Position numbers and translations under genes: made by a program | Notes under the pieces: generated by a model | What the model was told of the DNA's origin: nothing | Database searches by the model: none | What the model saw: the letters and a program-made list of their open reading frames with translations, nothing else | DNA from: Desulfobacterales bacterium | Lineage (GTDB): Bacteria; Desulfobacterota; DSM-4660; Desulfatiglandales; Desulfatiglandaceae | Assembly (NCBI GenBank): GCA_027061865.1 | Contig: JAMOVZ010000399.1 | Span: forward strand, 1 to 27,936 | Reading direction: 5' to 3' | Length of the DNA: 27,936 bases | Part shown: positions 269-24,177 of the stretch, in pieces | Position numbering within the stretch: position 1 is the stretch's first letter | Layout: the number at the start of each line of letters is the position of its first letter

Positions 269-477
269 ATTTGTTTGTTGAGAATGGGGAGTTACATTCA
301 TGAAATTAATCAAGACACAAGCTGCCAACTCAAAGATGGAGGCCCGAAGAGCCTCTCCATTGCTGGGAATCAAAGGAAACTGCGAAATGAAAGGGGGTGA
401 TGCTCTTTAAAAGATTACATGGAGGCGCGGAGGATGGTTTTTTTATAAGACCCACATCAACTAAGGGAGGAAGAAAG

Positions 478-1530
478 ATGAAACGATTTACTATTTTCTT
501 TATCCTCGGGCTGTTGACCTTGGCACTGGGAACAACAGCTTATGCAGAGAAAAAATTCAAGATCGCTTTTATACCCAAGATTATTGGTAATACATTCTTT
601 GAAGTGGCTGGCGCCCACGCTGTGGAGATGGGCAAAAAATTGGGTGTTGAAGTAAAGTATGATGGCCCGGCAGAGGCCTCTGTGGCAGCTCAGGTTAAGT
701 TTATTAATACTTTTGTTAATATGGGATATGATGCCATCGTTATTTCAGCACTAGATCCCAAAGGGTTGAACCAAGCTCTCAAAAGGGCAATGGCCAGGGG
801 AGTAGTAATTGTTACATGGGACTCAGACGTAGATCCTGACTATCGTACCTTTTACGTGAATCAGGGCACTCCTGACATATTGGGACGGCTTTTGGTAAAC
901 ATGGTGTTGAACCAGCTCGGCACCTGGCATGGCAAGTTTAAGGTGGCCTTCCATTATTCCTCACCTACTGTTACGGACCAAAACTCCTGGGTAAAATATG
1001 CGAAGAAGATCATAACCGAGGAGCATCCTGAGTGGGAAATTGTTACCACACAGTACTCTGATATGAATTTCCCTAAGGCCGTCTCGGTTGGCGAACAAAT
1101 ACTAAAAACCTATCCTGATATTAATGCCATCATATGCCCTGACTCCACTGCGTTCCCCGGACAAGCCAAGGCCGTAGAGAATCTAAACATGTCAGGTAAA
1201 GTTATCGTGGTGGGTTTCACCACACCGAGCACTATCAAACAATACATAAAGAGAGGAACCGTGCTTCAAGGAGGTCTCTGGGACTGTGGAGTGCAGGGCG
1301 CAGCGGGAGTATATGTTGCCTACAAGCTCTTGAAAGGTGAGAAAATAGAGGTAGGCACCTCATTCGAGATTCCTGGTATCCCCGGAAAATTCAAGGTGGT
1401 CCCAAATAAGCTCCAGGGTGGAGAAATGTACGAAAGGCCAAAATATGAGAACCGAAATGATAATGGAATTGTTCTCTTACCCGAGAGGCTTATCTTTACC
1501 AGATACAACATAGATAAATACAACTTTTAA
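478..1530 (+). CDS. lsrB: AI-2 ABC transporter periplasmic binding protein LsrB
   Basis: Signal peptide followed by LsrB motifs IAFIPK, YDGP, TWDSD, YVNQGT, YSSPTVTDQN, HPEWEIVTTQ and NGIVLLPERLIF..NIDKYNF. GGGAGG at 465-470 favours ATG 478 over the ORF-track start at 397. Confidence 0.93.
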   Translation: MKRFTIFFILGLLTLALGTTAYAEKKFKIAFIPKIIGNTFFEVAGAHAVEMGKKLGVEVKYDGPAEASVAAQVKFINTFVNMGYDAIVISALDPKGLNQALKRAMARGVVIVTWDSDVDPDYRTFYVNQGTPDILGRLLVNMVLNQLGTWHGKFKVAFHYSSPTVTDQNSWVKYAKKIITEEHPEWEIVTTQYSDMNFPKAVSVGEQILKTYPDINAIICPDSTAFPGQAKAVENLNMSGKVIVVGFTTPSTIKQYIKRGTVLQGGLWDCGVQGAAGVYVAYKLLKGEKIEVGTSFEIPGIPGKFKVVPNKLQGGEMYERPKYENRNDNGIVLLPERLIFTRYNIDKYNF

Positions 1531-1542
1531 TACACTATTCAA

Positions 1543-1576
1543 AGGGCAAGGGGGCATTGACCGGCCTTCTTGCCCT
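1543..1576 (+). other. GC-rich stem-loop between lsrB and lsrK (probable mRNA-stabilising or attenuating hairpin)
   Basis: AGGGCAAGGGGGC-ATTGACCG-GCCTTCTTGCCCT forms a 13-bp stem with 2 G-U pairs and has no clear U-tract. Confidence 0.6.
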
Positions 1577-1612
1577 ATTGGAACAAGGAATAACAACACT
1601 CAGGGGGATACT

Positions 1613-3169
1613 ATGGGATATTTTTTGGTGATAGACGCAGGCACTGGAAGTGGCAGGGTCGTGGTATTCAACGAAAAAGGCCACCAAATTGGCTTTGCTC
1701 AAAAGGAATGGCGTCATTTGAATCTCACCGGTGTCCCGGGTGCCATTGATTTTGATGTAAAAGAAAACTGGAAAATCATTAAAAGCTTAATTCGAGAGGC
1801 CATATCCACCTCAAGGATCAATAGTAGGGAAATCAAGGCTATTACCTCTACATCAATGAGAGAGGGATTGGTGCTTTATGATGAGGCTGGCAATGAAATA
1901 TGGGCCTGCTCCAATATTGATGCCCGCGCGGAGGCGGAAGTGGCTTTCTTAAAAGAACAAGGACTTGAAAAGGAAATTTACGAACGAACCGGCCAGACCT
2001 TTTCCATCTCTGATGTACCGAGGCTATTATGGATAAAGCGCAACTTGCCAAATATCTATAGCAAGATCCATAGTCTCGGAATGATAAGCGATTGGGTCAT
2101 TTATAAATTGTCTGGAGAATTCCGAGCAGAACCTTCCAATGTGTCCACATCCGGATTCTTTGATACTATGGGTCGACAATGGTCTGAGGATCTAATAAGA
2201 AAGCTTGGCCTCCCCGCCGATATCTTGCCTCCTGTGATAGAGCCGGGCACTGTAGTGGGAACGCTACTAAGTGAACTGGCCCAGGAGCTAGGACTTCCCA
2301 ATGACGTTCTGGTGGTAATGGGTGGAGGCGATGCCCAGCTTGCTACAATAGGGGTTGGAGCTGTAAACAATCGAGACACAGTTATTATTGGAGGGACATT
2401 CTGGCAACAAGAGGTAAACGTCACTCGCCCTATTCCCCACCCGGAATGCAAAATTAGGATAAATTCTCATGCAGTTCCTGGATTATGGCAGTTTGAGGGT
2501 ATTTCCTTCCTGATTGGTCTAACCATGAGATGGTTTAGGGATGCCTTTTGTGGGCAGGAAAAGAAGATAGCTGAAGAGTTAGGAATCTCGGCCTATACCC
2601 TATTAAGTGCACAAAGCAGGAATATACCCCCGGGATCTTATGGGATCCTGCCCATATTTTCCAACATCATGGATTATATAGAGTGGAAGCATGCAGCTCC
2701 TTCATTGATGAATTTTGACATAAACGAACCTGAAAAATATGGAAAGCCTGCCGTATTTAAGGCATTGATGGAGAATGCTTGTTTCAACAGTCTAGGCAAC
2801 CTTAGGGAAATCAGCAACGTAGTGGGCTATTTCCCTGAAGAGGTCACCTTTGCCGGAGGAGCTTCTTACAGCCCGGAGTGGTCTATGGTTTTGGCCAGTG
2901 TTCTCGGCACCAGGGTAAAGGTACCCAAAGTGAAGGAGGCCACTGCTTTAGGAGGAATGATATGTGCATCAATCGGAGCCGGAATCTATGGTAGTTTTCA
3001 AGAGGCAGTAGATAAAGTAGTGCGGTTCGAGGCGACTTTCGAACCTGATCCAGAAGATAATCAAACCTATCTGGAAGTCTATGAGAGATGGAAAGAGGTT
3101 TACAACAATATCCTGGCACTTTCCGATAAAGGCCTTTTGAGGCATATGTGGAAGGCGCCGGGTCTTTAA
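1613..3169 (+). CDS. lsrK: AI-2 kinase LsrK (FGGY family)
   Basis: DAGTGS N-terminal motif, EWRH...VPGAIDFD..NW, TSMREG.VLYD, WACSNIDARA and GGTFWQQ are all LsrK-like. It lies within the lsr operon. Confidence 0.92.
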   Translation: MGYFLVIDAGTGSGRVVVFNEKGHQIGFAQKEWRHLNLTGVPGAIDFDVKENWKIIKSLIREAISTSRINSREIKAITSTSMREGLVLYDEAGNEIWACSNIDARAEAEVAFLKEQGLEKEIYERTGQTFSISDVPRLLWIKRNLPNIYSKIHSLGMISDWVIYKLSGEFRAEPSNVSTSGFFDTMGRQWSEDLIRKLGLPADILPPVIEPGTVVGTLLSELAQELGLPNDVLVVMGGGDAQLATIGVGAVNNRDTVIIGGTFWQQEVNVTRPIPHPECKIRINSHAVPGLWQFEGISFLIGLTMRWFRDAFCGQEKKIAEELGISAYTLLSAQSRNIPPGSYGILPIFSNIMDYIEWKHAAPSLMNFDINEPEKYGKPAVFKALMENACFNSLGNLREISNVVGYFPEEVTFAGGASYSPEWSMVLASVLGTRVKVPKVKEATALGGMICASIGAGIYGSFQEAVDKVVRFEATFEPDPEDNQTYLEVYERWKEVYNNILALSDKGLLRHMWKAPGL

Positions 3170-3201
3170 CGCATACTTGCAATTAAAGAAAGGAGAAATA
3201 A

Positions 3202-3555
3202 ATGTTTTTAACCAATGAATCAGAACACGAATACCGCTTTGGAGATAACGGCCCCAAATATTTGTCTAGGGGGCCTCGTACCGATTTTGGAATCGTCACT
3301 CTTTTACCAGGGCAGGATTTTCCAGCTCATAAACATACTCGTATTGAAGAGGCCTTTTTCACCATCGAAGGGGAAGTTCATCTTTACTTGGATGGACAAT
3401 GTCATGTGCTTAAAAAGGGAGATTATCTACGTTGTGATCCAGGTGAAGTTCACTATGTGATCAATAAGGGTAAAGTTCCATGGAAAGCCGTATTTGTAAA
3501 GGCCCCATATGACCCTGATGATGGAGTCACAGTAGACTGGAAGCCCGAAGAGTAA
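3202..3555 (+). CDS. Small metal-binding cupin (Cupin_2) protein
   Basis: Cupin motif 1 PGQDFPAHKHTRIEEAFFTIEG and motif 2 GDYLRCDPGEVHYVIN supply His/His/Glu/His ligands. RBS AAGGAG upstream. Confidence 0.85.
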   Translation: MFLTNESEHEYRFGDNGPKYLSRGPRTDFGIVTLLPGQDFPAHKHTRIEEAFFTIEGEVHLYLDGQCHVLKKGDYLRCDPGEVHYVINKGKVPWKAVFVKAPYDPDDGVTVDWKPEE

Positions 3556-3593
3556 ATAAAAAATTCTAAACAAGAAAAAGGAGGATAATTCAC

Positions 3594-4499
3594 ATGCCAG
3601 ACATGGAAGATTTAAGAGAGGCAGAAAAGTTTCACCTTGATACTCCTCAGCAAACTCCAGGGTTTTTCTTAAAGGGCTCAAATGGATTGGATTGGGGAAT
3701 GAAAAATAGGCTCTCCAGGATCTTCAATCCAAATACAGGACGTACCGTTATGCTTGCCATAGACCATGGATACTTTCAAGGCCCTACCACAGGTCTTGAG
3801 AGGATCGATTTGGACATCTTGCCCCTCCTCCAGCACGCTGATACACTCATGCTTACGCGTGGGATCTTGAGATCCCTCATCCCCCCATCTAACACCATCC
3901 CCATAGTGCTAAGGGTATCGGGAGGAACCAGTATCTTAAAAGAATTGTCCAACGAAGAGATAGCGGTTGACATTGAAGATTCTATTCGTCTCAACGTATG
4001 TGCTATGGCAGTGCAAGTCTTTATAGGAGGGGAATATGAGCGCCAGTCTATTATAAACATGACGCGCATGGTGGACCTGGGCACACGCTATGGTATACCC
4101 ACATTAGCCGTAACTGCAGTGGGAAAAGACATGGCGAGAGATGCCAGATACTTCAGGCTTGCTACCCGGATTTGTGCTGAACTGGGAGCCCATTACATAA
4201 AAACATATTATGTGGAAAAGGGATTTGAGACGGTTACTGCCTCGTGCCCCGTACCCATAGTAATGGCAGGAGGTAAAAAGATTCCTGAATTGAATGCATT
4301 GACTATGGCCTATAATGCAGTACAACAGGGTGCTGCAGGGGTAGATATGGGGCGCAATATCTTTCAGTCAGAGGCACCAACTGCAATGCTTCAAGCTATA
4401 AAGGCGGTGGTCCATGAAAATGAAACACCTCAAAAGGCCTTTGATTTATACATGACACTGAAGAAGGAATCCTCGTCACAAAATACTCCCGAGGGATAA
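3594..4499 (+). CDS. lsrF: 3-hydroxy-5-phosphonooxypentane-2,4-dione thiolase LsrF
   Basis: [31 protein letters not shown], catalytic Lys in IKTYY, and [22 protein letters not shown]. Confidence 0.95.
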
Positions 4500-4564
4500 T
4501 CAGTTAGGAAAACTTTCTCGTTGCCTTAATTTTGAAATCCTTTGGGATAAGACGTCAGATCGAA

Positions 4565-4616
4565 TTATGTCAAATTTGATATAACGCATTGAAAATCTTA
4601 GTGGATTTCAATTGCG
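4565..4616. promoter_or_regulatory. Two adjacent inverted repeats upstream of aor (candidate operators)
   Basis: TTATGTCAAATTTGATATAA (4565-4584) has 9 of 10 positions paired. CGCATTGAAAATC-N6-GATTTCAATTGCG (4585-4616) is an imperfect inverted repeat. Confidence 0.45.
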
Positions 4617-4730
4617 ATTTGGCGGTCTTTAATTTATATTCAATTATGATGTCTTAAAGTCCTCACCAGGAGAGGGCTGCCCACCATTTTTAGTAATCAT
4701 TTAACCCACCTAAGAAGAAAGGAGGCCGCC

Positions 4731-6461
4731 ATGTTCAAGATCTTGAGAGTCAACATGTCAGATCTTTCAGTGAACGTTGAGGACATTCCTGAGCATTACC
4801 AAGGACTGGGCGGACGGGGGCTCACATCGGCCATCGTTGCCCGGGAGGTCCCACCTACCTGCTCTGCCATTGGCCCTAACAATAAACTAGTCTTTGCCCC
4901 AGGGCTATTGGGGGCAACAGCATGCGCCAATTCAGGCCGCATATCAGTTGGCGGAAAAAGCCCCCTTACTGGCACCATCAAGGAATCCAATTCCGGGGGC
5001 CAAGCAGGTCAATACCTGGCAAGGCTTGGCATTGCCGCCATAGTGGTGGAAGGGCTCCCTGAAGAGGGCAAGCTTTACAAGCTGTTTGTGGGCAAAGACA
5101 AATACGAACTCTCCCCTGCTGATGACCTGAAAGGCCTCGGCAACTATGACACTGTTGACAGGCTTAAGGGCCAGTTTGGCGAAAAGGTGGGTTATGTGAG
5201 CATTGGGCAGGCAGGAGAGTGGAAGATGGCAGGGGCCAGCGTTGCCTTCACGGACAGAGAAATTCGGCCCACACGCCATGCAGGCCGCGGGGGCATGGGT
5301 GCTGTAATGGGCTCAAAGGGGCTCAAGGCCATTATAATTGATCCAGAGGGTGGCGAGCTGGCGCCAATAAAGGACAAGGAGGCATTTAAAGAGGCTTCCA
5401 AACGTTTTACAAATGCCCTGAAGGAGCATCCAGTAACCAGCCAGGGACTTACCAACTATGGAACAGACATCCTGATCAATATCATAAATGAGGCGGGCGG
5501 GCTTCCCACCCGTAACTTCAGCTCTGGAAGATTTGAAGGCGCGGAAAAGGTGGCTGGAGAAACCCTCAACCAGATCACCCAGGAGCGGAAGGGTGTAGTC
5601 AGCCACGGATGCATGTCAGGGTGCATCATCCGCTGCTCTGGCATCTACCTTGACCAGCAGGGCAATTATCTCACCAAGTGGCCTGAGTACGAAACGGTCT
5701 GGGCGTGGGGGCCAAACTGCGGAATTGACGACCTGGATGCAATCGCCCGAATTGACAGGGCCTGTGATGACTATGGCCTGGACACCATTGAGATAGGAAA
5801 CTCCATAGCTGTGGCCATGGAAGCAGGGATAAAAGAATTTGGCGATGCAGCAGGAGCCGAGGAGCTGCTTGCAGAAATCGGCAAAGGCACTCCTTTAGGA
5901 AGAATCCTGGGCTCAGGGGCTGCCATTGTTGGCAAGACCTTTGGGGTCCGAAGGGTGCCAGTGGTTAAGAGTCAGGCTCTTCCTGCCTATGACCCCCGGG
6001 CAATAAAGGGGATTGGGGTCACCTATGCCACCTCCACCATGGGAGCTGATCACACTGCTGGATATGCTGTTGCAACCAATATCATGAAGGTGGGTGGCGA
6101 TGTGGATCCGTTGAAGACCGAGGGGCAGGTGGAGCTGTCCCGCAGCCTTCAGATTGCAACGGCAGTGATTGACACCCTTGGCCTTTGCCTCTTCGTGGCC
6201 TTTCCCGTAATGGACATGCCTGATGCCTTTAACGCCATTGTGGACATGGTGAATGCAAAGTATGGGCTTTCCATGACTGCTGACGATGTTACCGCCCTTG
6301 GGCAGAAGATCCTCAAGATGGAGCGGGACTTCAACACCAGGGCCGGATTTAACCAGGCAGACGACAGGCTTCCCGAATTCTTTATGACCGAAAAACTCCC
6401 ACCCCACAATGAAGTCTTTGACATCAAAGAAGAAGAACTGGACTCCCTTTTTAACTTCTAG
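4731..6461 (+). CDS. aor: Tungsten-dependent aldehyde:ferredoxin oxidoreductase (AOR/WOR family)
   Basis: GLGGRG, KSPLTGTIKESNSGG, AGRGGMGAVMGSKGLKAI, Cys cluster CMSGCIIRC, EYET, CDDYGLDTI, GLCLF and DDRLPEFF. 576 aa. RBS AAAGGAGG. Confidence 0.92.
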   Translation: MFKILRVNMSDLSVNVEDIPEHYQGLGGRGLTSAIVAREVPPTCSAIGPNNKLVFAPGLLGATACANSGRISVGGKSPLTGTIKESNSGGQAGQYLARLGIAAIVVEGLPEEGKLYKLFVGKDKYELSPADDLKGLGNYDTVDRLKGQFGEKVGYVSIGQAGEWKMAGASVAFTDREIRPTRHAGRGGMGAVMGSKGLKAIIIDPEGGELAPIKDKEAFKEASKRFTNALKEHPVTSQGLTNYGTDILINIINEAGGLPTRNFSSGRFEGAEKVAGETLNQITQERKGVVSHGCMSGCIIRCSGIYLDQQGNYLTKWPEYETVWAWGPNCGIDDLDAIARIDRACDDYGLDTIEIGNSIAVAMEAGIKEFGDAAGAEELLAEIGKGTPLGRILGSGAAIVGKTFGVRRVPVVKSQALPAYDPRAIKGIGVTYATSTMGADHTAGYAVATNIMKVGGDVDPLKTEGQVELSRSLQIATAVIDTLGLCLFVAFPVMDMPDAFNAIVDMVNAKYGLSMTADDVTALGQKILKMERDFNTRAGFNQADDRLPEFFMTEKLPPHNEVFDIKEEELDSLFNF

Positions 6462-6471
6462 CCATGCTTTA

Positions 6472-6501
6472 CTCCCTGCCCTCTTGCTGGGGGGCAGGGA
6501 G
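6472..6501. terminator. Strong hairpin between the convergent aor and glcD-like genes
   Basis: CTCCCTGCCCTC-TTGCTG-GGGGGCAGGGAG forms a 12-bp stem. There is no U-tract on either strand, so terminator function is uncertain. Confidence 0.5.
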
Positions 6502-6511
6502 CCCTAAAGGC

Positions 6512-7900
6512 TCACAAGATCTTCCCAGGATTCAGTATGTGATTTGGATCAAAGAGCTCTTTCAGCCTTCTCATCCATTGGAGCGCCTCTCCGTGCTCTT
6601 GGGCCATATAGCGCCGCTTTCCAAGGCCGATGCCGTGCTCTCCGCTGGCCGTGCCTCCCAGTTCAATGGCCTTCCGCACGATCCTGTCACTGATCTCCCA
6701 GATCCTTGCCCACTCCTCCCTGTCTCCCTCTTTGCCCATGAAGATTGCATGAATGTTCCCATCTCCTGCATGGCAAAACACGTATCCAGGAATACCTGCC
6801 TTTTTCACTTCCTCACTTGCAAAGGCAACCATCCGGGGAAACTGGCTTATGGGCACTGCCACATCAGTGGTTAACTGCTTTCTGCCCACATTTATCCTTG
6901 GGATTATCTCCCCAAGGGCATGCCTTGTCTTCCAAAGGTTGTCCCGCTCCTTCCTCCCAATGCCTGACCTGAAAGAAATGGACCCGCAGCCTTTGGCAAT
7001 CTCCTCTGCTATGGCCATCACTTCTGCCAAATAATCCTTGCTTGGGCCATGAAACTCCACCAAAAGCACTGGGGCGCGGGGGAGTTCTATCCCGCTGTGG
7101 CTCCCAAAAAGTTGTGAGACCTCTGAGTCCAATAACTCAAGGGCAGCGGGCTCAAGCCCAGCCCTTAGCATCTCGAAGACCGCGGTTGCGGCCTGGGCCT
7201 CTTCCTTGAAGGAGATTAGAGCTGAAGAGAACTCTTGCGGCAGCCCTCTGAGCCTTACTGTTGCCTCAACCACCACCCCGAGGGTACCCTCTGAGCCCAC
7301 AAAAAGATCCAGGAGTTTATAGCCTGAAGAACTCTTAGAGGCCCGGGTGCCCACTTCAATGATCTGGCCATCAGCAAGGACCACCTTGAGCCTCAGCAAA
7401 TTATCCTTGGTGGAGCCGTATCTAAGGGCCCGCGTGCCGCTTGCATTATTGGCCACCATCCCCCCTATCGTGGCGCCGGCGCCTGGGTCTGGAGGAAAAA
7501 AGAGGCCTTTGTGGCGCAACTTATCGTTTAGATCCTTATAAACAAGGCCAGACTCCACATCGGCCTGAAAGTCCTGCTCCCGGATTTCCAGTATACGGTT
7601 CATCTGGGTGAAATCCAGCACTATCCCCCTTTTTACGGGAATCGGATTGCCCTCCAGGCTGCTTCCCGCCCCCCATGGGGTTACAGGGATCTTGGCCTCA
7701 TTGGCAAACCTCAAGATTTCACTAACCTCTTGAGGGGATATGGGCCAAATCACCACCTCTGGCTTTACAGGCCCGTGATGTGATTGATCCCTGGCGTGAA
7801 GCTCAAGGTTTGATCGGCCTGTGGAAATCCTATCTTCCTGTACGATGCGGGAAAGCTTTTGTATCTCTTCCTGGCCCAACCAACGATATTCCATTGTCAT
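6512..7900 (-). CDS. FAD-linked 2-hydroxyacid oxidoreductase (GlcD / D-lactate dehydrogenase family)
   Basis: PWGAGSSLEG, FFPPDPGAGATIGGMVANNASG, FVGSEGTLG, HAGDGNIH and GEHGIG. GGGGAG lies 7 nt upstream of ATG 7900. Confidence 0.9.
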   Translation of the reverse strand: MTMEYRWLGQEEIQKLSRIVQEDRISTGRSNLELHARDQSHHGPVKPEVVIWPISPQEVSEILRFANEAKIPVTPWGAGSSLEGNPIPVKRGIVLDFTQMNRILEIREQDFQADVESGLVYKDLNDKLRHKGLFFPPDPGAGATIGGMVANNASGTRALRYGSTKDNLLRLKVVLADGQIIEVGTRASKSSSGYKLLDLFVGSEGTLGVVVEATVRLRGLPQEFSSALISFKEEAQAATAVFEMLRAGLEPAALELLDSEVSQLFGSHSGIELPRAPVLLVEFHGPSKDYLAEVMAIAEEIAKGCGSISFRSGIGRKERDNLWKTRHALGEIIPRINVGRKQLTTDVAVPISQFPRMVAFASEEVKKAGIPGYVFCHAGDGNIHAIFMGKEGDREEWARIWEISDRIVRKAIELGGTASGEHGIGLGKRRYMAQEHGEALQWMRRLKELFDPNHILNPGKIL

Positions 7901-8111
7901 CTTTACACTCCCCTGATTTATGCTATCTAATCTCAACCATTGAGACAATGAAGGCTAACACAGGCATAGGCCGTATGGCAACTTGACAGTTTTACTGCTT
8001 TTTCCTTTGAATTTCAGATAATTCCCTGGTATGCATATGACCATCCAAAAGACCCGTGCGCCCAGTGCATACTCGCCCGCCTGAGGCCGAGAGGAGTTGT
8101 AGTCAAAGACT

Positions 8112-8708
8112 TTGCATAACATTGAATCCAATAACACGTTAGAAAATAAACCTTGTTCAGATAAAGGTGAGGGTCCGGCGGCCTCTGAAGAAGAGGTAAT
8201 TGCCGCAAGGACAAAAGAGATCCTTGCCCGTTTTCCTCATAAACGCTCCTCCCTCATCCCGATATTACAGGCCATCCAGGAAAGGCTTGGATACATTGAT
8301 GGCATCTCTATGGAGGCAGTGGCCTCCCACCTTGGCCTTGCCTTGGTGGAAGTTTATGGGGTTGCTACCTTTTACAATCAGTTCAGGTTCCATCCCCCCG
8401 GAAGACACCAGATAAAGGTATGCCTTGGCACTGCATGCCATGTACGGGGAGGTGGAATCATCCTGGAGAATTTTGAAAGAAAGCTGGACATAAAGAGTGG
8501 TGAGACCACCAGTGACCGCGAATTCAGCCTTGACAGTGTGGCCTGTGTCGGGTGCTGTGCCTTGGCCCCTGTAGCGGTCATAGATGAAGAAATAAAGGGC
8601 CACATGATGCCGAGCAAGGTGGAGGGAATAATCCTGGGCTTTGAATTGGAAAAAGAAAAGCAAGCAAGGGAAAAACACGATCCTGGGGAAAATGGCGACC
8701 AAGGCTGA
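8112..8708 (+). CDS. NuoE/HydC/HoxE-like [2Fe-2S] subunit
   Basis: LIPILQAIQERLGY, YGVATFYNQF, VCLGTACHVRG and ACVGCCALAP. The TTG start is uncertain. Confidence 0.9.
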   Translation: MHNIESNNTLENKPCSDKGEGPAASEEEVIAARTKEILARFPHKRSSLIPILQAIQERLGYIDGISMEAVASHLGLALVEVYGVATFYNQFRFHPPGRHQIKVCLGTACHVRGGGIILENFERKLDIKSGETTSDREFSLDSVACVGCCALAPVAVIDEEIKGHMMPSKVEGIILGFELEKEKQAREKHDPGENGDQG

Positions 8709-10638
8709 AACTCCACTTAACACCTATGAGAAGATTAAGGAACAGGCCGTCCAGCATTGGCAGAGATTTGAGTCTGCCTCAGTGCCGAAAATAGCCATTG
8801 GGACGGCCACATGCGGGATCGCGGCAGGCGCCCTTGAGACAAAAAAGGCCTTTGAGGAATTTTTGACAGAAGAAGGAATTGAGGCAATTGTGCGCACCGT
8901 GGGCTGCTCAGGACACTGCTATGCAGAGCCCACTGTGGTGATCCACTGCCCTTACACCGACTTTCCCCCTATCCTTTATTACAACGTAACCCCAGGGAAG
9001 GCCCGCATGCTGATCCGCTCGTTTATCAAAGACGGCGACCCTCTTTTTGAATACATGCTGGGAGCAATGGCTCCTGACGAATTGCTCCCCTCAGTAAGTG
9101 ACTTCCCCAGGTTCAGCAAGGAGACCAGGGTGGTCATGGAAAAGTGCGGCCTCATTAATCCTGAAAGCATCTATGAGTATGTGGCCCTCGGGGGATACGA
9201 GGCCCTGGCTAAGGCCCTGGAATTAGAGCCGGAGGGAATCATTCACCAGGTAAAGAGATCTGGTTTGCGGGGCAGAGGGGGAGCAGGGTTTCCCACTGGA
9301 GTGAAATGGGAGATTGCAAGGGAGGCTGAAGGGCCTAATTCGACCAAGTATGTGATTTGTAATGCAGACGAAGGCGACCCAGGCGCCTACATGGACAGAA
9401 CTATCCTTGAGAGCAACCCTCACCAGGTGTTAGAGGGCATGATCATATGTGCGTACGCAATAGGGGCTTCCAAGTGCTTTATCTATGTGAGGGCCGAGTA
9501 CCCGCTTGCGGTAAAGACCATCACCAAGGCCATCGAAGAGGCAGCGCAACTGGGATTCCTAGGAGAATCGGTCCTTGGGAGTTCATTTGATATACAGGTT
9601 GAGGTGTTTCAGGGCTCAGGTGCCTTTGTGTGCGGGGAGGAGACGGCCCTGGTCAGTTCTATTGAGGGAAAGAGGGGAATGCCTAGGCACCGCCCGCCCT
9701 TTCCTGCAGAAAAGGGGCTTTGGGATAAGCCAACGGTCATAAACAACGTAAAGACCTTTGCATCTGTCCCTCCTATTTTAAATCATGGGGCCAGGTGGTT
9801 CCGTAACATCGGCACAGAGAGCAGCCCGGGCACGGCCATATTCTCAGTGGTGGGGGATGTAAAACATGCAGGGCTCGTAGAGATCCCAACCGGGGTCACC
9901 TTGAGGACTCTGGTCTTTGAGATCTGCGGGGGGCCTCCCAACAAGAAGGGGTTTAAGGCTGTACAAATAGGGGGCCCTTCTGGAGGGTGCCTGCCAGAGG
10001 CCTTCCTGGATATTCCAATTGATTTTGACACCCTCACCCAGGCAGGAGCCATGATGGGCTCAGGCGGCATGGTGGTCATGGATGAGGAAACATGCATGGT
10101 GGATGTGGCCCGCTATTTCCTCGAATTCACCCAAAAGGAATCATGTGGAAAATGCACCTTTTGCAGAATTGGGACCCGCCATCTGCTTGAGGTCCTTATG
10201 AGGATAACCAGGGGAGAAGGCGAGAAAGGTGACATTGAACTGCTCGAGGAGCTGGCCCGCCATGTGAAGCTTGGCTCCCTGTGCGGCCTGGGTAGGACAG
10301 CCCCAAACCCAGTGCTCACCTCACTTAAATATTTCAGGGATGAATATGAAGCCCATATAAAGGAAAAAAGGTGTCCTGCCATGGTATGCAGGAGCCTTAC
10401 CGCCTTTTATATTGATCTCGGTAAGTGTGCCAGGGGGTGCGATGCATGTGTGGGCTCCTGCCCCACAAAGGCCATTTTCACCACCCGGGACCGCAAAAAG
10501 GCCATAGATCAAGAACTGTGTGTCAAGTGCGGGGAGTGTGTGGTGGCATGCCCCCCTGAATACAATGCGGTGAGAAAGATCTCTCCTGCACACAAGGTCC
10601 CCATTGTGGAAAGGCCAGAAGAGGATATGCAAGATTGA
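8692..10638 (+). CDS. NuoF/HydB-like FMN/NAD(H)-binding subunit with N-terminal thioredoxin-like Fe-S domain and C-terminal 2x[4Fe-4S] domain
   Basis: GLRGRGGAGFPTG, NADEGDPGAYMDR, GAFVCGEETAL, ESCGKCTFCRIG...SLCGLG, then H-x5-C-x4-C, CARGCDACVGSCP and CVKCGECVVACP. ATG 8692 is preferred as start. Confidence 0.92.
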   Translation: MATKAETPLNTYEKIKEQAVQHWQRFESASVPKIAIGTATCGIAAGALETKKAFEEFLTEEGIEAIVRTVGCSGHCYAEPTVVIHCPYTDFPPILYYNVTPGKARMLIRSFIKDGDPLFEYMLGAMAPDELLPSVSDFPRFSKETRVVMEKCGLINPESIYEYVALGGYEALAKALELEPEGIIHQVKRSGLRGRGGAGFPTGVKWEIAREAEGPNSTKYVICNADEGDPGAYMDRTILESNPHQVLEGMIICAYAIGASKCFIYVRAEYPLAVKTITKAIEEAAQLGFLGESVLGSSFDIQVEVFQGSGAFVCGEETALVSSIEGKRGMPRHRPPFPAEKGLWDKPTVINNVKTFASVPPILNHGARWFRNIGTESSPGTAIFSVVGDVKHAGLVEIPTGVTLRTLVFEICGGPPNKKGFKAVQIGGPSGGCLPEAFLDIPIDFDTLTQAGAMMGSGGMVVMDEETCMVDVARYFLEFTQKESCGKCTFCRIGTRHLLEVLMRITRGEGEKGDIELLEELARHVKLGSLCGLGRTAPNPVLTSLKYFRDEYEAHIKEKRCPAMVCRSLTAFYIDLGKCARGCDACVGSCPTKAIFTTRDRKKAIDQELCVKCGECVVACPPEYNAVRKISPAHKVPIVERPEEDMQD

Positions 10639-10645
10639 AGGTTTT

Positions 10646-11287
10646 ATGGCTCTAGTTAAGATCACAGTGGACGAAACCCTTATCCAGGCTGAAGAAGGGA
10701 AAAACCTGCTGCAAGTGTGTCTGGAAAACCAGATCTACATCCCTAACCTCTGCTATTTGGAGGGGATGGGGGAGCCGCCAGCATCCTGCAGGCTATGCCT
10801 AGTTGAGATTGATGGGGTGGATGGGCCTGTCACTGCTTGTACAACCAAGGTGGGACAAGGAATGGTGGTGAGGACCGACTCAGACCTGGTAAGAGAGCTT
10901 CAGCGCTCTGCTTTGAGGTTGCTCCTCTCCTCCCACCGTGTGGACTGCGCCCACTGCGAGGCTAACAAGAAGTGCGCTCTGCAGGATATAGCAAGGTTCT
11001 TGGGGGTGGGTCTAAAACCTAAAGGGCTGGATCAGATCTTAAAGGAACCGGATTGTGATGACTCGCATCCCCATTTATCGTATTATCCCAACAGGTGTGT
11101 GCTTTGTGGAAGATGTATATATGTGTGCAAGAGGGAACACCCGCTCGCGATGCTCTCCTTTGCCAAGCGCGGTTTTGATACGGTGGTAAGCCTGTATGGT
11201 GCATCCCTAACAAAAGATCTCCCTTGTGTAACCTGCTCCCTCTGTGTGGATATCTGCCCGGTGGGGGCTTTGTTGAGAAAATCTTGA
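10646..11287 (+). CDS. NuoG-N-terminal/HoxU-like Fe-S subunit ([2Fe-2S], His-ligated [4Fe-4S], 2x[4Fe-4S]); no catalytic domain
   Basis: IPNLC...SCRLCLVE...C, HRVDCAHC...C, CVLCGRCIYVC and CVTCSLCVDICPVGAL. The ORF ends immediately after the last cluster motif. Confidence 0.88.
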   Translation: MALVKITVDETLIQAEEGKNLLQVCLENQIYIPNLCYLEGMGEPPASCRLCLVEIDGVDGPVTACTTKVGQGMVVRTDSDLVRELQRSALRLLLSSHRVDCAHCEANKKCALQDIARFLGVGLKPKGLDQILKEPDCDDSHPHLSYYPNRCVLCGRCIYVCKREHPLAMLSFAKRGFDTVVSLYGASLTKDLPCVTCSLCVDICPVGALLRKS

Positions 11288-11299
11288 GGTCGTCTGAAA

Positions 11300-12451
11300 A
11301 TGGGTCAGCAAGAAAATAGCTCCGGATTTGAGCTTGACCGCTATAGGGCACTGTTTCCCATCACCAAGAGATACTGTTTCCTAAACCATGCGGCCATCTC
11401 TCCCTGGTCTACAAGGATAGCACAGGCCGTTGAAGGATTATTGCAGGAATTCTGTGAGCAGGGAATCACTGCATACCCTCAATGGATGAAACGAGTGGAA
11501 CGGGTTAGGGGCCTTTTTGCAACCCTTGTGGGTGCAGATCCAAAAGAGATCGCCTTTGTGGGCAATACCTCTGAGGGCTTAAGTATCGTCGCATCCGGCA
11601 TAAAGTGGAGGGCTGGAGACAAGGTTCTTGTCTCCATGCCCGATTTTCCGGCCAATGTCTATCCCTGGATGAATTTGGAGGCGAAGGGGGTGGAACTGAT
11701 TCCTGTAAATAGAAGGAATGGCAGGCTGGAAGTGGAGGATTTTCGGAAATTGCTCCAGCCAGGGGCTAGGATGATTGCGCTCAGCTCGGTTGACTTTGCC
11801 ACGGGCTTTTATTGCGATCTTCAAGGAATAGGGGAGCTGTGCAAGGAAAAGGGCCTGTTTTTTTGCGTTGATGCTATACAAAGCCTGGGGGCCATCCCTA
11901 TGGATGTGAAGAAGTTTGGCATCCACTTCTTGGCGGCAGGGGGGCAAAAGTGGCTTCTTGGACCCATGGGGTGCGGAGGGCTGTATGTGGATGCAAGCGT
12001 CCTCGGCCTCATTGATCCCATAGTGGTTGGATGGAGGAGTGTAACAAGGGAAGAGGATTTTTTTGACATCCACTTTGAGCTGAAGCCCGATGCCACCAAA
12101 TTCGAGCCTGGCACCCGCAATCTTATGGGAATTTATGCCTTGGGCGCGGCCATTGAACTCTTGCTGGAGGTGGGTATCGAGGGAATTAAGGACAGGATTT
12201 TCGCCTTGAACGATCGGTTTATTGATGGATTGGGGGCCAGGGGCCTTAAGATAATAACGCCCACGGGCGTGCAGGAGAGGTCGGGAATCTTGTGTTTTAA
12301 ACCTAAGAGGGACCCAAAGGCCCTCTTTAGGCACCTGGCCCAAAAAGGCATCATAGTATCAGAAAGGAATAACCTCATAAGGATTTCACCCCACTTCTAC
12401 AATAACGAGGAAGAGGTTCAAAAATTTTTTGCCGCCTTGGATTCGTTTTGA
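11300..12451 (+). CDS. Class V PLP-dependent aminotransferase-fold enzyme
   Basis: FLNHAAISP, VGNTSEGL, DFPANVYPW, VDAIQSLG, AGGQKWLLGP (PLP Lys) and RISPHFYN. Confidence 0.88.
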   Translation: MGQQENSSGFELDRYRALFPITKRYCFLNHAAISPWSTRIAQAVEGLLQEFCEQGITAYPQWMKRVERVRGLFATLVGADPKEIAFVGNTSEGLSIVASGIKWRAGDKVLVSMPDFPANVYPWMNLEAKGVELIPVNRRNGRLEVEDFRKLLQPGARMIALSSVDFATGFYCDLQGIGELCKEKGLFFCVDAIQSLGAIPMDVKKFGIHFLAAGGQKWLLGPMGCGGLYVDASVLGLIDPIVVGWRSVTREEDFFDIHFELKPDATKFEPGTRNLMGIYALGAAIELLLEVGIEGIKDRIFALNDRFIDGLGARGLKIITPTGVQERSGILCFKPKRDPKALFRHLAQKGIIVSERNNLIRISPHFYNNEEEVQKFFAALDSF

Positions 12452-12499: not shown

Positions 12500-12549
12500 T
12501 TGACTTAGAATTTTTTACCATTTATTCTCTATAGAGAATGATTATCATT
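12500..12549 (+). promoter_or_regulatory. Sigma70-type promoter of perR with overlapping palindromes
   Basis: TTGACT (12500-12505)-N17-TATTCT (12523-12528). A perfect palindrome ATTCTCTATAGAGAAT spans 12524-12539 and a Fur-type 6-1-6 box AATGAT-T-ATCATT spans 12537-12549. Confidence 0.65.
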
Positions 12550-13065: not shown

Positions 13066-13130
13066 TTATCAATAATTATTATCTCAAAAGATAATTTGTA
13101 TTTTAATAACAATTATCGCTAAATATAATT
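13066..13130. promoter_or_regulatory. AT-rich katG upstream region with a Per-box-like core
   Basis: ATAAT-T-ATTAT at 13072-13082 matches the 11-nt core of the Bacillus Per box TTATAATNATTATAA. Further GATAAT/ATTATC half-sites lie nearby. Confidence 0.5.
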
Positions 13131-22158: not shown

Positions 22159-24177
22159 GTGCAAACAGGAGCGTGTCAATTGAAGAATCAAGATATAGTG
22201 CCAAATCTTAACGGGCTTCACATCAAGAGAGGAGAGCTTAAGACCGTGCAAGTAAACCTGGGCAACAGGTGTAACCAAGCATGCAGGCATTGCCATATAG
22301 AGGCATCCCCAAAGGGGACCAGGATAATGGATCAGGAAACAGCGGTCAAGATAATCAAAAAGCTTGCTGAACTTCCCATCCGGAAAGTCGAGTTTACTGG
22401 TGGAACCCCTGAAATGATCCCTGCCTTCAAGCTGTTTGTGGAAAAACTCTCAGGTGCCGGAAAAGCCCTTACTGTGAGAACTAGCCTTACGGTACTGCAG
22501 AATCCAAAATACAGTTTCTATATTGACCTCTACAAGGAACATAAGGTGAGGATCATCGCCTCTCTTCCAGGCACTTTTGACGATGTGACTGACCAGCAGC
22601 GGGGAAAGGGTGTCTTTAAAAGATCCATAGGGCTTTTGAAAAGGCTTAATGAACTCGGATTTGGGACAAACGGTTTGGACCTTGACTTGGTCTTTAATCC
22701 ATTAGAAACTGAACTTCCCCCGCCCCAAGCAGAAATCGAGAGGATCTTCAGGCAGATATTAAAAGAGCGCTATTCTATTCAATTTAATAATCTTTACACC
22801 ATCGTAAATTCTCCAATTGGTCGTTTCAAAAAGGCACTCGAGGCCAAAGGGCTTCTTGAAGACTATCTGAACACTCTCAAGGCCAATTTCAATCCTGCCA
22901 CCATCGGCTCTATCATGTGCAAGGAATTGATTTCTGTGGACTATCAAGGCTGCGTATATGACTGTGACTTCAATCTTGCCCTTGGCCTTCCCGTAAAGGG
23001 TTATGAGCGAAAAAAATTTTGGGAGATAGACTTTTCTGACTTCTCCCCAAAGATAACCACCGGGGAGCACTGTTATGCCTGTACTGCGGGAAGAGGAAGC
23101 TCTTGCATGGGAGAGATAGCAATGGAATCAAAAATCAGGGATGATGTGAAAAATTATTATGGAAGGGAACTTCAGACATCCAAAGATCTTAAGACCACTG
23201 CATGCTGTCCGGCTGACGCCTTACCCGAATATGTAAGGGATGTCCTTCCCTATATTGTGGATGAGGTGAAAGAGAAGTTTTATGGATGCGGCTCCCCCAT
23301 TCCCCCTGCCATCGAGGGATGCACTGTGCTAGACCTTGGTTGTGGTACGGGAAGGGATAGCTTTATTGCAGCCAAATTAGTAGGCCAACGGGGCAGAGTG
23401 ATAGGCCTGGACATGACCGATGAGCAACTTGCAGTGGCCAACCGCAATGTTGAGGCCCAGATGGAAAGGTTTGGCTATGACAGGCCCAATGTTGAGTTTA
23501 AAAAGGGATACATTGAGGATTTGAAGGGAGCAGGGATTGAAGATGGTTCAATAGATGTAGTTATCTCCAATTGTGTAATCAACCTCTCGCCTGACAAAGA
23601 GGCGGTTTTCAGCGAAATATTTAGGGTCCTCAAACCAGGTGGTGAGCTTTACTTTTCCGATGTCTTCAGCGGCAGGCGGGTCCCTGGCCATCTCAAACAC
23701 GATCCCGTCCTTTTGGGCGAGTGCCTGGCAGGGGCTATGTATATAGAAGACTTCAGGAGGATGCTTCTAAGGCTCGGCTGCCTTGACTACAGGGTCATCT
23801 CGAAACGAAAAATTGATCTGAAAAATCCCGAGATTGAAGAAAAGATCGGCATGGTGGATTTCTATTCCATGACGGTCAGGGCCTTCAAGCTGGATGACCT
23901 GGAAGACATCTGCGAAGACTACGGTCAGGTGGCAGTCTACTTGGGAACCGTACCGAGATTTCCGCATCACCTTGAGCTGGATGACCACCATCGCTTCATC
24001 ACGGGAAAGCCCATGCTGGTCTGTGGAAACACCGCATCCATGCTTTCAAACACCCGATTTGCCCCTCACTTTAAAGTAATGGGGGACAGATCAGTCCATT
24101 ACGGCCCTTTTGATTGTGCCTCCCCAGCAAGTATAGAGGGCGAAGAGCCTTCAGCTGACACTTGCTCCTGCTCGTGA
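22159..24177 (+). CDS. Fusion of an ArsS-type radical SAM domain (N-terminal, about 320 aa) and an arsenite S-adenosylmethyltransferase ArsM/AS3MT domain (C-terminal, about 350 aa)
   Basis: N-half: QVNLGNRCNQACRHCHIEASP, FTGGTPE, YDCDFN and HCYACTAGRGSSC. C-half: YYG..L..S.DLKTTACC, FYGCG, VLDLGCGTGRD, ISNCVINL and GECLAGA. There is no stop between the halves. The true start may be TTG 22180 (AGGAG 8 nt upstream). Confidence 0.85.
   Translation: MQTGACQLKNQDIVPNLNGLHIKRGELKTVQVNLGNRCNQACRHCHIEASPKGTRIMDQETAVKIIKKLAELPIRKVEFTGGTPEMIPAFKLFVEKLSGAGKALTVRTSLTVLQNPKYSFYIDLYKEHKVRIIASLPGTFDDVTDQQRGKGVFKRSIGLLKRLNELGFGTNGLDLDLVFNPLETELPPPQAEIERIFRQILKERYSIQFNNLYTIVNSPIGRFKKALEAKGLLEDYLNTLKANFNPATIGSIMCKELISVDYQGCVYDCDFNLALGLPVKGYERKKFWEIDFSDFSPKITTGEHCYACTAGRGSSCMGEIAMESKIRDDVKNYYGRELQTSKDLKTTACCPADALPEYVRDVLPYIVDEVKEKFYGCGSPIPPAIEGCTVLDLGCGTGRDSFIAAKLVGQRGRVIGLDMTDEQLAVANRNVEAQMERFGYDRPNVEFKKGYIEDLKGAGIEDGSIDVVISNCVINLSPDKEAVFSEIFRVLKPGGELYFSDVFSGRRVPGHLKHDPVLLGECLAGAMYIEDFRRMLLRLGCLDYRVISKRKIDLKNPEIEEKIGMVDFYSMTVRAFKLDDLEDICEDYGQVAVYLGTVPRFPHHLELDDHHRFITGKPMLVCGNTASMLSNTRFAPHFKVMGDRSVHYGPFDCASPASIEGEEPSADTCSCS

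Follow-up and report, generated by a model that had tools for sequence, protein, structure and literature searches.

Anaerobes keep NADH and low-potential ferredoxin in balance largely through a few routes, of which the electron-bifurcating enzymes of the Bfu family are a major one, and to our knowledge the site for the third substrate is, in every characterised member, part of the same complex or gene cluster. Here we describe a trio of genes for BfuC, BfuB and BfuA subunits, at positions 8112-11287 of a Desulfobacterales contig, in which no such site was found, in that BfuA contains no catalytic domain and no extra gene is conserved beside the trio in 80 related loci. The window, by which we mean the whole stretch of DNA analysed, is the complete 27,936-bp contig C399 of a metagenome-assembled genome (MAG) of 2.58 Mb in 498 contigs that is 90.7% complete, and the nearest relatives are Desulfobacterales MAGs. 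No RNA run containing this stretch is listed, and the sole public run, a hydrothermal vent metagenome, is its probable source.

The Bfu family is defined by the domains of BfuB and BfuC, by the ligands of the B2 cluster and by the motifs DEGDPGAFMDR and GAGAFVCGEE, which non-bifurcating homologues lack (PMC9304861). BfuB combines the flavin mononucleotide (FMN) domain of NuoF, an SLBB domain, the 4Fe-4S domain of NuoF and a ferredoxin-type 4Fe-4S domain. In Type 1 enzymes BfuA itself bears a fused catalytic domain, in Types 2 and 3 the gene cluster encodes additional subunits and the A3 cluster is absent or present, respectively, and Type 4 enzymes have no BfuA (PMC9304861). A further 17 BfuB clades have no obvious third function (Schut et al. 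2022, PMC9304861). In WorABCSL and BamGHI, BfuA carries electrons between the BfuBC core and separate catalytic subunits; in WorA the A3 cluster is missing and the C-terminus consists of a zinc finger and of an adaptor helix that recruits WorS, and in the NiFe- and Nfn-Bfu enzymes electrons enter through an A3-A2-A1 branch (PMC12318220). The cyanobacterial HoxEFU subcomplex reacts with both ferredoxin and NAD(P)H (PMC7363133, PMC11647496).

The three genes of the window trio are co-directional open reading frames (ORFs):

8112-8708, + strand: BfuC, NuoE-like [2Fe-2S] subunit of 198 residues (PF01257)
8641-10638, + strand: BfuB, FMN- and NAD(H)-binding subunit (PF01512, PF10589, Fer4), with a probable ATG at 8692
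10604-11287, + strand: minimal, HoxU-like BfuA (PF13510, PF10588, PF22117), with a probable ATG at 10646

BfuC matches PF01257 over residues 35-174 (3.9e-48) as a thioredoxin-like protein of the NuoE type, matches the NCBIfam NuoE, HoxE and FdsG models at ~1e-40, and contains the cluster motif CLGTAC...CVGCC in its translation; the TTG at 8112 is the only start codon 5' of the domain. BfuB matches PF01512 (2.6e-49), PF10589 (2e-34) and, at its C-terminal Fer4 pair, Fer4_10 (5.2e-07), and has a weak SLBB match (21.2 bits against a cut-off of 27). Its layout comprises an N-terminal 2Fe-2S domain, the B1 4Fe-4S site, a B2 site of three cysteines and one histidine, and a C-terminal 2x[4Fe-4S] ferredoxin domain. 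Judged by profile, the domain matches of the trio subunits are strong family matches that lie beyond chance. The motifs ETC485MVD, SCGKCTFC, H572-x5-C578-x4-C583, DEGDPGAYMDR, GSGAFVCGE and two C-terminal 4Fe-4S motifs were all found in BfuB, which thereby carries the Bfu-type NADH/FMN signature (DEGDPGAYMDR and GSGAFVCGEETAL) and the equivalents of the B2 ligands C438, H525, C531 and C536 (A. mobile numbering). With PF01257 in BfuC and PF13510, PF10588 and PF22117 in BfuA, all three subunits have the features by which Bfu subunits are recognised. An earlier note on this DNA, written from the letters alone, had described the subunits in this way and proved correct in all details, including the site formed by C485, H572, C578 and C583 and the variant GAYMDR.

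That note had also asked whether the B subunit belongs with bifurcating proteins or with plain NADH diaphorases, and the comparison falls on the bifurcating side (~1e-200 over the full length versus ~1e-113 over the core only). Solved bifurcating BfuB chains, namely NfnB (9n5u/9bov), NiFe-HydB (7t2r), StnB (8oh5), HydB (7q4v/8a6t/7p5h) and WorB (9mqx_B), match at full length with E-values of 1.6e-217 to 3.6e-179. The best relatives among them are NfnB, NiFe-HydB and StnB, with residues 48-645 of the window protein aligning end to end with NfnB 9n5u_B (1.6e-217), N-terminal Cys domain included, and WorB is the most distant. In contrast, the non-bifurcating NuoF and FdsB chains align with the ~155-576 core only (~1e-113), and the TIGR01959 NuoF model scores BfuB at 491.7, under its cut-off of 558.65. 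These alignments support the placement of BfuB with the bifurcating BfuB proteins rather than with plain NuoF diaphorases. The H-x5-C-x4-C motif is kept in 71/71 BfuB proteins of the clade described below, with a stricter regular expression for the context of the first cysteine matching 41/71. GAYMDR, which the earlier note had set against the more common GAFMDR, turned out to be a trait of the clade (65/72 BfuB proteins), and the tyrosine variant is also listed for the known FeFe-Bfu of C. bescii (PMC9304861 supplement).

BfuA is 213-227 residues long, with 213 residues from the probable ATG at 10646. Its Fer2_4 domain (PF13510, 1.2e-18) is followed by a His-ligated 4Fe-4S motif (HRVDCAHCEANKKC) and two CxxCxxCxxxC motifs, so that by motif it would hold the A1 [2Fe-2S] cluster, a His-ligated [4Fe-4S] cluster and two further [4Fe-4S] clusters. 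The stop codon comes 11 residues past the last Fe-S motif, leaving no C-terminal domain, and HydA, FdhA and NuoG chains are matched over their first ~210 residues only. The HoxU model scores BfuA at 160.3 against a cut-off of 333, and the HoxE equivalog score is 139.7 against 224. In 67 orthologous loci BfuA spans 211-250 residues, and 5-32 residues follow the last cluster motif. The 2Fe-2S motif is retained in 67/67 orthologues, the His-cluster motif in 63/67 and the ferredoxin motifs in 60-67/67; retention of all four motifs combined with so short a tail argues that the whole BfuA wire is in use.

A Rosetta-stone search for fused forms of BfuA gave FdhA proteins of 890-950 residues as the nearest fused relatives (41-45% identity). 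Its top match, P0005, joins a BfuA of this type (47% identity) to a biotin-protein ligase domain in 481 residues; its cluster has 20 member sequences and one contig on record, a single short one, and we treated this fusion as probably incidental. The remaining matches were ordinary FdhA, HydA and Nfn-type proteins.

The relatives of the trio were taken from the 80 best genomic relatives of BfuB and from a second scan with BfuA as query, which added ~60 orthologous loci. BfuB relatives of at least 56% identity, and the locus L036 at 51%, are accompanied by a BfuA of 211-254 residues wherever the contig reaches the gene, and the A subunits of the other ~50%-identity relatives are of the FeFe (~575 residues), Nfn (~1,170-1,290 residues) or Fdh type (~700-960 residues). 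A maximum-likelihood tree of BfuB sets the window within a clade of 16 rows (SH-aLRT 98), apart from the Nfn-, FeFe- and Fdh-type rows; a short BfuA is present at each complete locus of this clade. Its branches are from Thermodesulfobacteriota and Bacillota (Desulfallas, Desulfocucumis, Syntrophomonadaceae), with L036 basal. Carriers include the cultured Desulfallas sp. Bu1-1, which has a member of the clade (L024), and the complete genome CP070694.1 (L130). Since the short form is consistent across these loci, BfuA is not a broken or truncated gene. When all ORFs were clustered over the 80 loci with flanks of up to 10 kb per side, only the trio genes were conserved, and the self-contained trio was found in ~70 related genomes, in line with the free-standing unit that the earlier note had claimed. 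In one clade member, on the complete MAG chromosome CP070657.1 (L014), a BfuB of 66% identity has no BfuC or BfuA match beside it and is followed by fragments of radical-SAM (S-adenosylmethionine) and AMP-ligase genes, which suggests a rearranged or decayed locus.

We also counted carriers by hand among 300 sampled genomes of the phylum, without control for kinship. About one genome in five (67/300) carries a short-BfuA orthologue, with none found in this sample in other genera of the window's own family. Acetyl-CoA synthase (PF03598) is present in 60/67 carriers (90%) versus 138/233 non-carriers (59%). The trio is thus enriched in genomes with acetyl-CoA synthase and is not obligatory there, as 138 such genomes are without it.

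Compared with NfnABC/StnABC, NiFe-HydABCSL and FeFe-HydABC, the trio shares the FMN/NADH motifs, the B1 and B2 sites, the N- and C-terminal Fe-S domains and the C1 cluster of BfuB and BfuC, and its BfuA begins with the same A1-A4 cluster domain. In contrast to theirs, this BfuA has no H-cluster, GltD-like, pterin or A5/C-terminal domain, and no extra subunit genes accompany it. Because it combines a four-cluster BfuA with neither a catalytic or C-terminal domain nor an extra subunit, the trio falls outside all four Bfu types. By description it is the same kind of case as BfuB clades 1-17, and a stand-alone BfuABC operon is not described there as a separate architecture (PMC9304861). Like the trio, HoxEFU of cyanobacterial HoxEFUYH consists of NuoE, NuoF and short NuoG-N-terminal subunits, with HoxU having the same four-cluster layout (PMC7363133, PMC11647496); unlike HoxF, the window BfuB carries additional Fe-S domains at both termini as well as the His/Cys site of Bfu enzymes, and a search of the genome yielded no hoxYH. 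A similarly short BfuA of ~200-250 residues occurs in the WorABCSL enzyme from Acetomicrobium mobile (PDB 9mqx, PMC12318220) and in BamGHI, but theirs lacks the His-ligated A3 cluster and has its partner genes in the same cluster, whereas the window BfuA has the His-cluster motif. A literature search for earlier accounts of the clade from sulfate reducers found nothing specific in the library covered. The family itself is already known and its unassigned clades are acknowledged in the literature; what is added here is the delimitation of a stand-alone BfuABC clade with a minimal four-cluster BfuA, autonomous across two phyla, and the exclusion of the obvious partners.

From the observed subunit architecture, ligand set, clade membership and operon autonomy, we infer bifurcation, cluster exposure and the nature of the partner as follows. 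The three genes would form a soluble BfuABC-type complex, in which BfuB would bind FMN and NAD(H), its C-terminal 2x[4Fe-4S] domain would carry the ferredoxin site, and BfuC would supply a mobile [2Fe-2S] cluster, an arrangement that is standard for Bfu chemistry (PMC9304861, PMC12318220). The short BfuA would serve as an electron wire only, with one [2Fe-2S] and three [4Fe-4S] clusters. Since it is not capped by a catalytic domain, its outer clusters (the His-ligated A3 and the last 4Fe-4S) should be solvent-exposed and could provide the docking site for a third redox partner encoded outside the operon. That a full four-cluster BfuA is under selection yet uncapped argues for electron passage to something outside the operon. 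This partner could be a diffusible protein that carries electrons or an Fe-S enzyme whose gene lies elsewhere, with HdrA/MvhD-type complexes and FdhA proteins lacking the Fe-S N-domain as the most plausible candidates, and the module would couple NAD(H), low-potential ferredoxin and the third partner as other Bfu enzymes do.

Within the window, three neighbouring genes bear on this proposal:

4731-6461, + strand: aldehyde oxidoreductase (AOR)-family protein, tungsten AOR (PF01314, PF02730)
6512-7948, - strand: GlcD-like flavin adenine dinucleotide (FAD) oxidase, between the AOR gene and the trio
11300-12451, + strand: class-V pyridoxal phosphate (PLP) enzyme (PF00266, 2.4e-51)

Among the 80 loci, the recurrent neighbours of the trio were:

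directly upstream of the trio, 16-18 of 80 loci: stand-alone cyclic nucleotide (cNMP)-binding protein
convergent, on the opposite strand, 9-11 of 80 loci, one lineage: RseC and a Flx/Hdr-like cluster
nearby, 8 of 80 loci: sigma-54/PAS activator
within about two genes downstream, 5 of 80 loci: HDOD protein
downstream of BfuA, 3 of 80 loci (window, L100, L130): class-V PLP enzyme

The earlier note had reported that no catalytic partner adjoins the trio and that the next gene encodes a PLP enzyme. Both statements were borne out, with profile searches finding no hydrogenase or molybdenum/tungsten bis-pyranopterin guanine dinucleotide (Mo/W-bisPGD) gene in the 27.9-kb contig. The PLP gene starts 13 nt downstream of BfuA, no terminator-like site was found between the two on the + strand, and in the window lineage it is probably co-transcribed with the trio. 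The best solved relative of its product is the cysteine desulfurase 5b7s (1.3e-35), and the context of the PLP lysine is kept. Because a deletion falls exactly at the region of the catalytic Cys loop (GHHCA), the enzyme may be of the C-S lyase type rather than a desulfurase. The AOR, GlcD-like, PerR and KatG neighbours of the window are common only to the syntenic relative L100, where ~6 kb (1362-7204 of L100) that the window lacks, including a TusA-like gene, separate the GlcD-like gene from the trio and a sigma-54/PAS activator lies directly upstream of BfuC. The AOR, GlcD-like and PLP genes are therefore not conserved partners of the trio. In the basal locus L036, the trio lies between a corrinoid iron-sulfur protein gene (PF03599) and genes for DUF3786, HdrA-like, MvhD and two methylenetetrahydrofolate reductase proteins.

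With respect to regulation, a perfect 6-1-6 palindrome, AATGATTATCATT, lies at 12537-12549, ~23 nt before the perR start and just 3' of a sigma-70-like promoter, and a degenerate copy lies at 13071-13083, before katG; the two look like a putative Fur/PerR-box pair. A link of the trio to a PerR regulon was considered and rejected: since the trio has no palindrome before it and the matches overall are no more numerous than chance would give, the adjacency of PerR and KatG was not used as evidence. No convincing GG-N10-GC element of a sigma-54 promoter was seen by eye before BfuC, and there were no Rfam matches near the trio operon. Elsewhere in the window, the region 397-7948 holds genes for a sugar-binding protein, an FGGY kinase, a cupin and a DeoC/LacD-family aldolase ahead of the AOR and the divergent GlcD-like oxidase, a set that could form a route from sugar through aldehyde to acid, Lsr-like or deoxysugar-like. 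At 22159-24177, one ORF of 672 residues fuses a radical-SAM/DUF3641 domain with a SAM methyltransferase domain, a pairing which we take to resemble the ArsS-ArsM type.

In the rest of the MAG, no H-cluster domain was found, and neither were NuoH and NuoD, so that the trio was rejected as the missing N-module of an 11-subunit Nuo. The single PF00374 match is a selenocysteine (Sec)-containing NiFe large subunit of ~560 residues on contig C72 (locus L004), whose in-frame TGA falls within RSCGVU, the N-terminal RxCGxC motif, while the C-terminal motif reads DPCIACGVH without it; a subunit of this length is presumably longer than HoxH and not HoxH-like. Two Sec-FdhA proteins of ~680 residues without the Fe-S N-domain are encoded on contigs C110, within an HdrA/MvhD cluster, and C249, and there are many HdrA/MvhD genes. 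Contig C65 carries NuoF fused to a GltD-like domain (>830 residues) behind a small NuoE-like gene, C384 and C205 carry GltD-like genes followed by FdhA-type Fe-S N-termini, and on C66 a molybdopterin ORF continues in frame into a NuoE-like domain; these four suggest further Fdh/Nfn-type modules cut by contig ends. On C177 (2493-10711), a Bam-like series encodes a 676-residue AOR-family protein, a 183-residue protein, an HdrD-like CCG protein, a 962-residue HdrA-like protein, MvhD and, at the contig end, a NuoE-like protein, and C182 (1-1204) encodes a BfuB C-terminus followed by a 205-residue BfuA that lacks the His-cluster domain. These contigs (loci L096 and L093) are probably adjacent parts of one Bam-like (class II benzoyl-CoA reductase-type) cluster.

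An unlikely alternative is that the trio alone is a soluble, non-bifurcating ferredoxin:NAD(H) oxidoreductase (diaphorase), with BfuA as a structural element or electron buffer, as its HoxU-like form and the autonomy of the operon in ~70 genomes with no conserved partner would allow. However, BfuB has the full bifurcation-type cofactor set rather than that of HoxF/NuoF, and a four-cluster BfuA has been kept for which such an enzyme would have no need, BfuA being absent altogether from Type 4 Bfu enzymes. Moreover, Wor-Bfu reduces neither NAD nor ferredoxin without the other (PMC9304861), a co-dependence suggesting that the core does not run simple two-substrate chemistry. We regard as improbable that the trio is the NADH/ferredoxin half of a trans-split formate dehydrogenase (FDH) resembling a Type 3 Fdh-Bfu, in which a stand-alone Sec-FdhA would dock on BfuA like the catalytic domain of a fused FdhA of ~900 residues. 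FdhA proteins are the nearest fused homologues of BfuA (41-45% identity), a BfuA of 213-227 residues and a Sec-FdhA of ~680 residues (C110, C249) add up to the fused length, and G. acidurici has an Fdh-Bfu with a separate pterin subunit (PMC9304861). Set against these points, a catalytic-only FdhA occurs near the trio in 0/80 loci, the sole nearby FDH (in locus L110) is encoded on the opposite strand and is a fused FdhA of full length, the FdhA on C110 lies within its own HdrA/MvhD cluster, and the BfuB clade is not nested among the Fdh-type rows.

The tungsten AOR encoded 1.6 kb upstream on the same strand (4731-6461) could in principle make the trio a split Wor-like bifurcating aldehyde oxidoreductase, since Wor-Bfu enzymes exist (PMC12318220), but this is very improbable: there is no gene for a WorS-type polyferredoxin, none of the 80 related loci has an AOR homologue close to the trio, BfuA has the His-cluster motif and ends 11 residues past its last cluster without the zinc finger and adaptor helix of WorA, and WorB (9mqx_B) is the most distant solved BfuB match. 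In addition, the divergent GlcD-like gene stands between the AOR and the trio, and in L100, 6 kb of other genes lie between that gene and the trio, with no homologue of the window AOR found in the L100 stretch covered, which ends at the GlcD-like gene. In the Wor system, BfuA binds WorS, not the AOR-like subunit. Least probable of all is that the trio is an NADH-input module split off from an enzyme of complex-I-like or Hox type (Nuo-Bfu or HoxEFU-YH), despite the homology of the subunits to NuoE/F/G and HoxE/F/U and the prediction of Nuo-Bfu in related phyla (PMC9304861). NuoH, NuoD and an H-cluster were not found in the 90.7%-complete MAG, its only NiFe large subunit is the ~560-residue protein (motifs RxCGxU and DPCxxC), scores against the HoxE and HoxU equivalog models are far under their cut-offs, and BfuA is without the C-terminal domain of NuoG.

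To the reading we favour, a module that exchanges electrons with a dissociable third partner docking on exposed BfuA clusters, we would assign a probability of roughly 0.5 on present sequence evidence. Besides the Bfu-type ligands of BfuB, the separate clade and the retained BfuA motifs, it draws on the Hdr-related settings of the trio in L036 and in the RseC-Flx/Hdr loci, on the FdhA proteins as nearest fused relatives of BfuA, and on the Sec-FdhA and HdrA/MvhD genes of the MAG. Several points weigh against it. No partner in cis is conserved in any lineage and none in trans was identified; the Hdr/Flx neighbours are on the opposite strand and in one lineage only, and a Wood-Ljungdahl/Hdr/MetF context occurs once; the acetyl-CoA synthase enrichment is modest, with kinship as a confounder; the MAG is fragmented, with the gene contexts of the candidates mostly cut; and a trio without a third substrate is biochemically conceivable. 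The earlier note had proposed a bifurcation module with a partner in trans and had counted a known-type partner elsewhere in the genome against it. Of that proposal, the conserved, free-standing trio and its Bfu-type B subunit are borne out, and bifurcation and docking to an enzyme in trans stay putative. The refuting condition is half decided: neither HoxH nor HydA was found, but formate dehydrogenases, Hdr modules and a second, Bam-like Bfu set are present, so the trio may assemble in trans with FDH, Hdr or Bam-like components into a complex of a known type; nothing in the genome data links it to the FDH/Hdr candidates. More speculatively, and at rather long odds, the trio might be an enzyme in its own right, a soluble redox hub with three arms, the third of which would serve a diffusible protein carrier as substrate (for example a second mid-potential ferredoxin or flavodoxin, or an MvhD-type domain of Hdr complexes) docking on the uncapped BfuA, with NADH and low-potential ferredoxin confurcated into, or bifurcated from, a ~-400 mV pool that feeds several Hdr- or Fdh-type enzymes in anaerobes with the acetyl-CoA pathway.

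Taken together, the trio is an uncharacterised stand-alone variant of the Bfu family, a well-defined case rather than a surprise, and probably a three-way redox module. That a complete bifurcating core with a four-cluster exit wire is widespread with no partner in cis may mean that the third substrate is of a new kind, for instance a carrier that diffuses, or that several enzymes of sulfate reducers and syntrophs share the module. How NADH, ferredoxin and Hdr-type complexes are linked in complete-oxidising sulfate reducers is largely conjectural, and knowing the partner would complete a missing part of their electron-flow maps.

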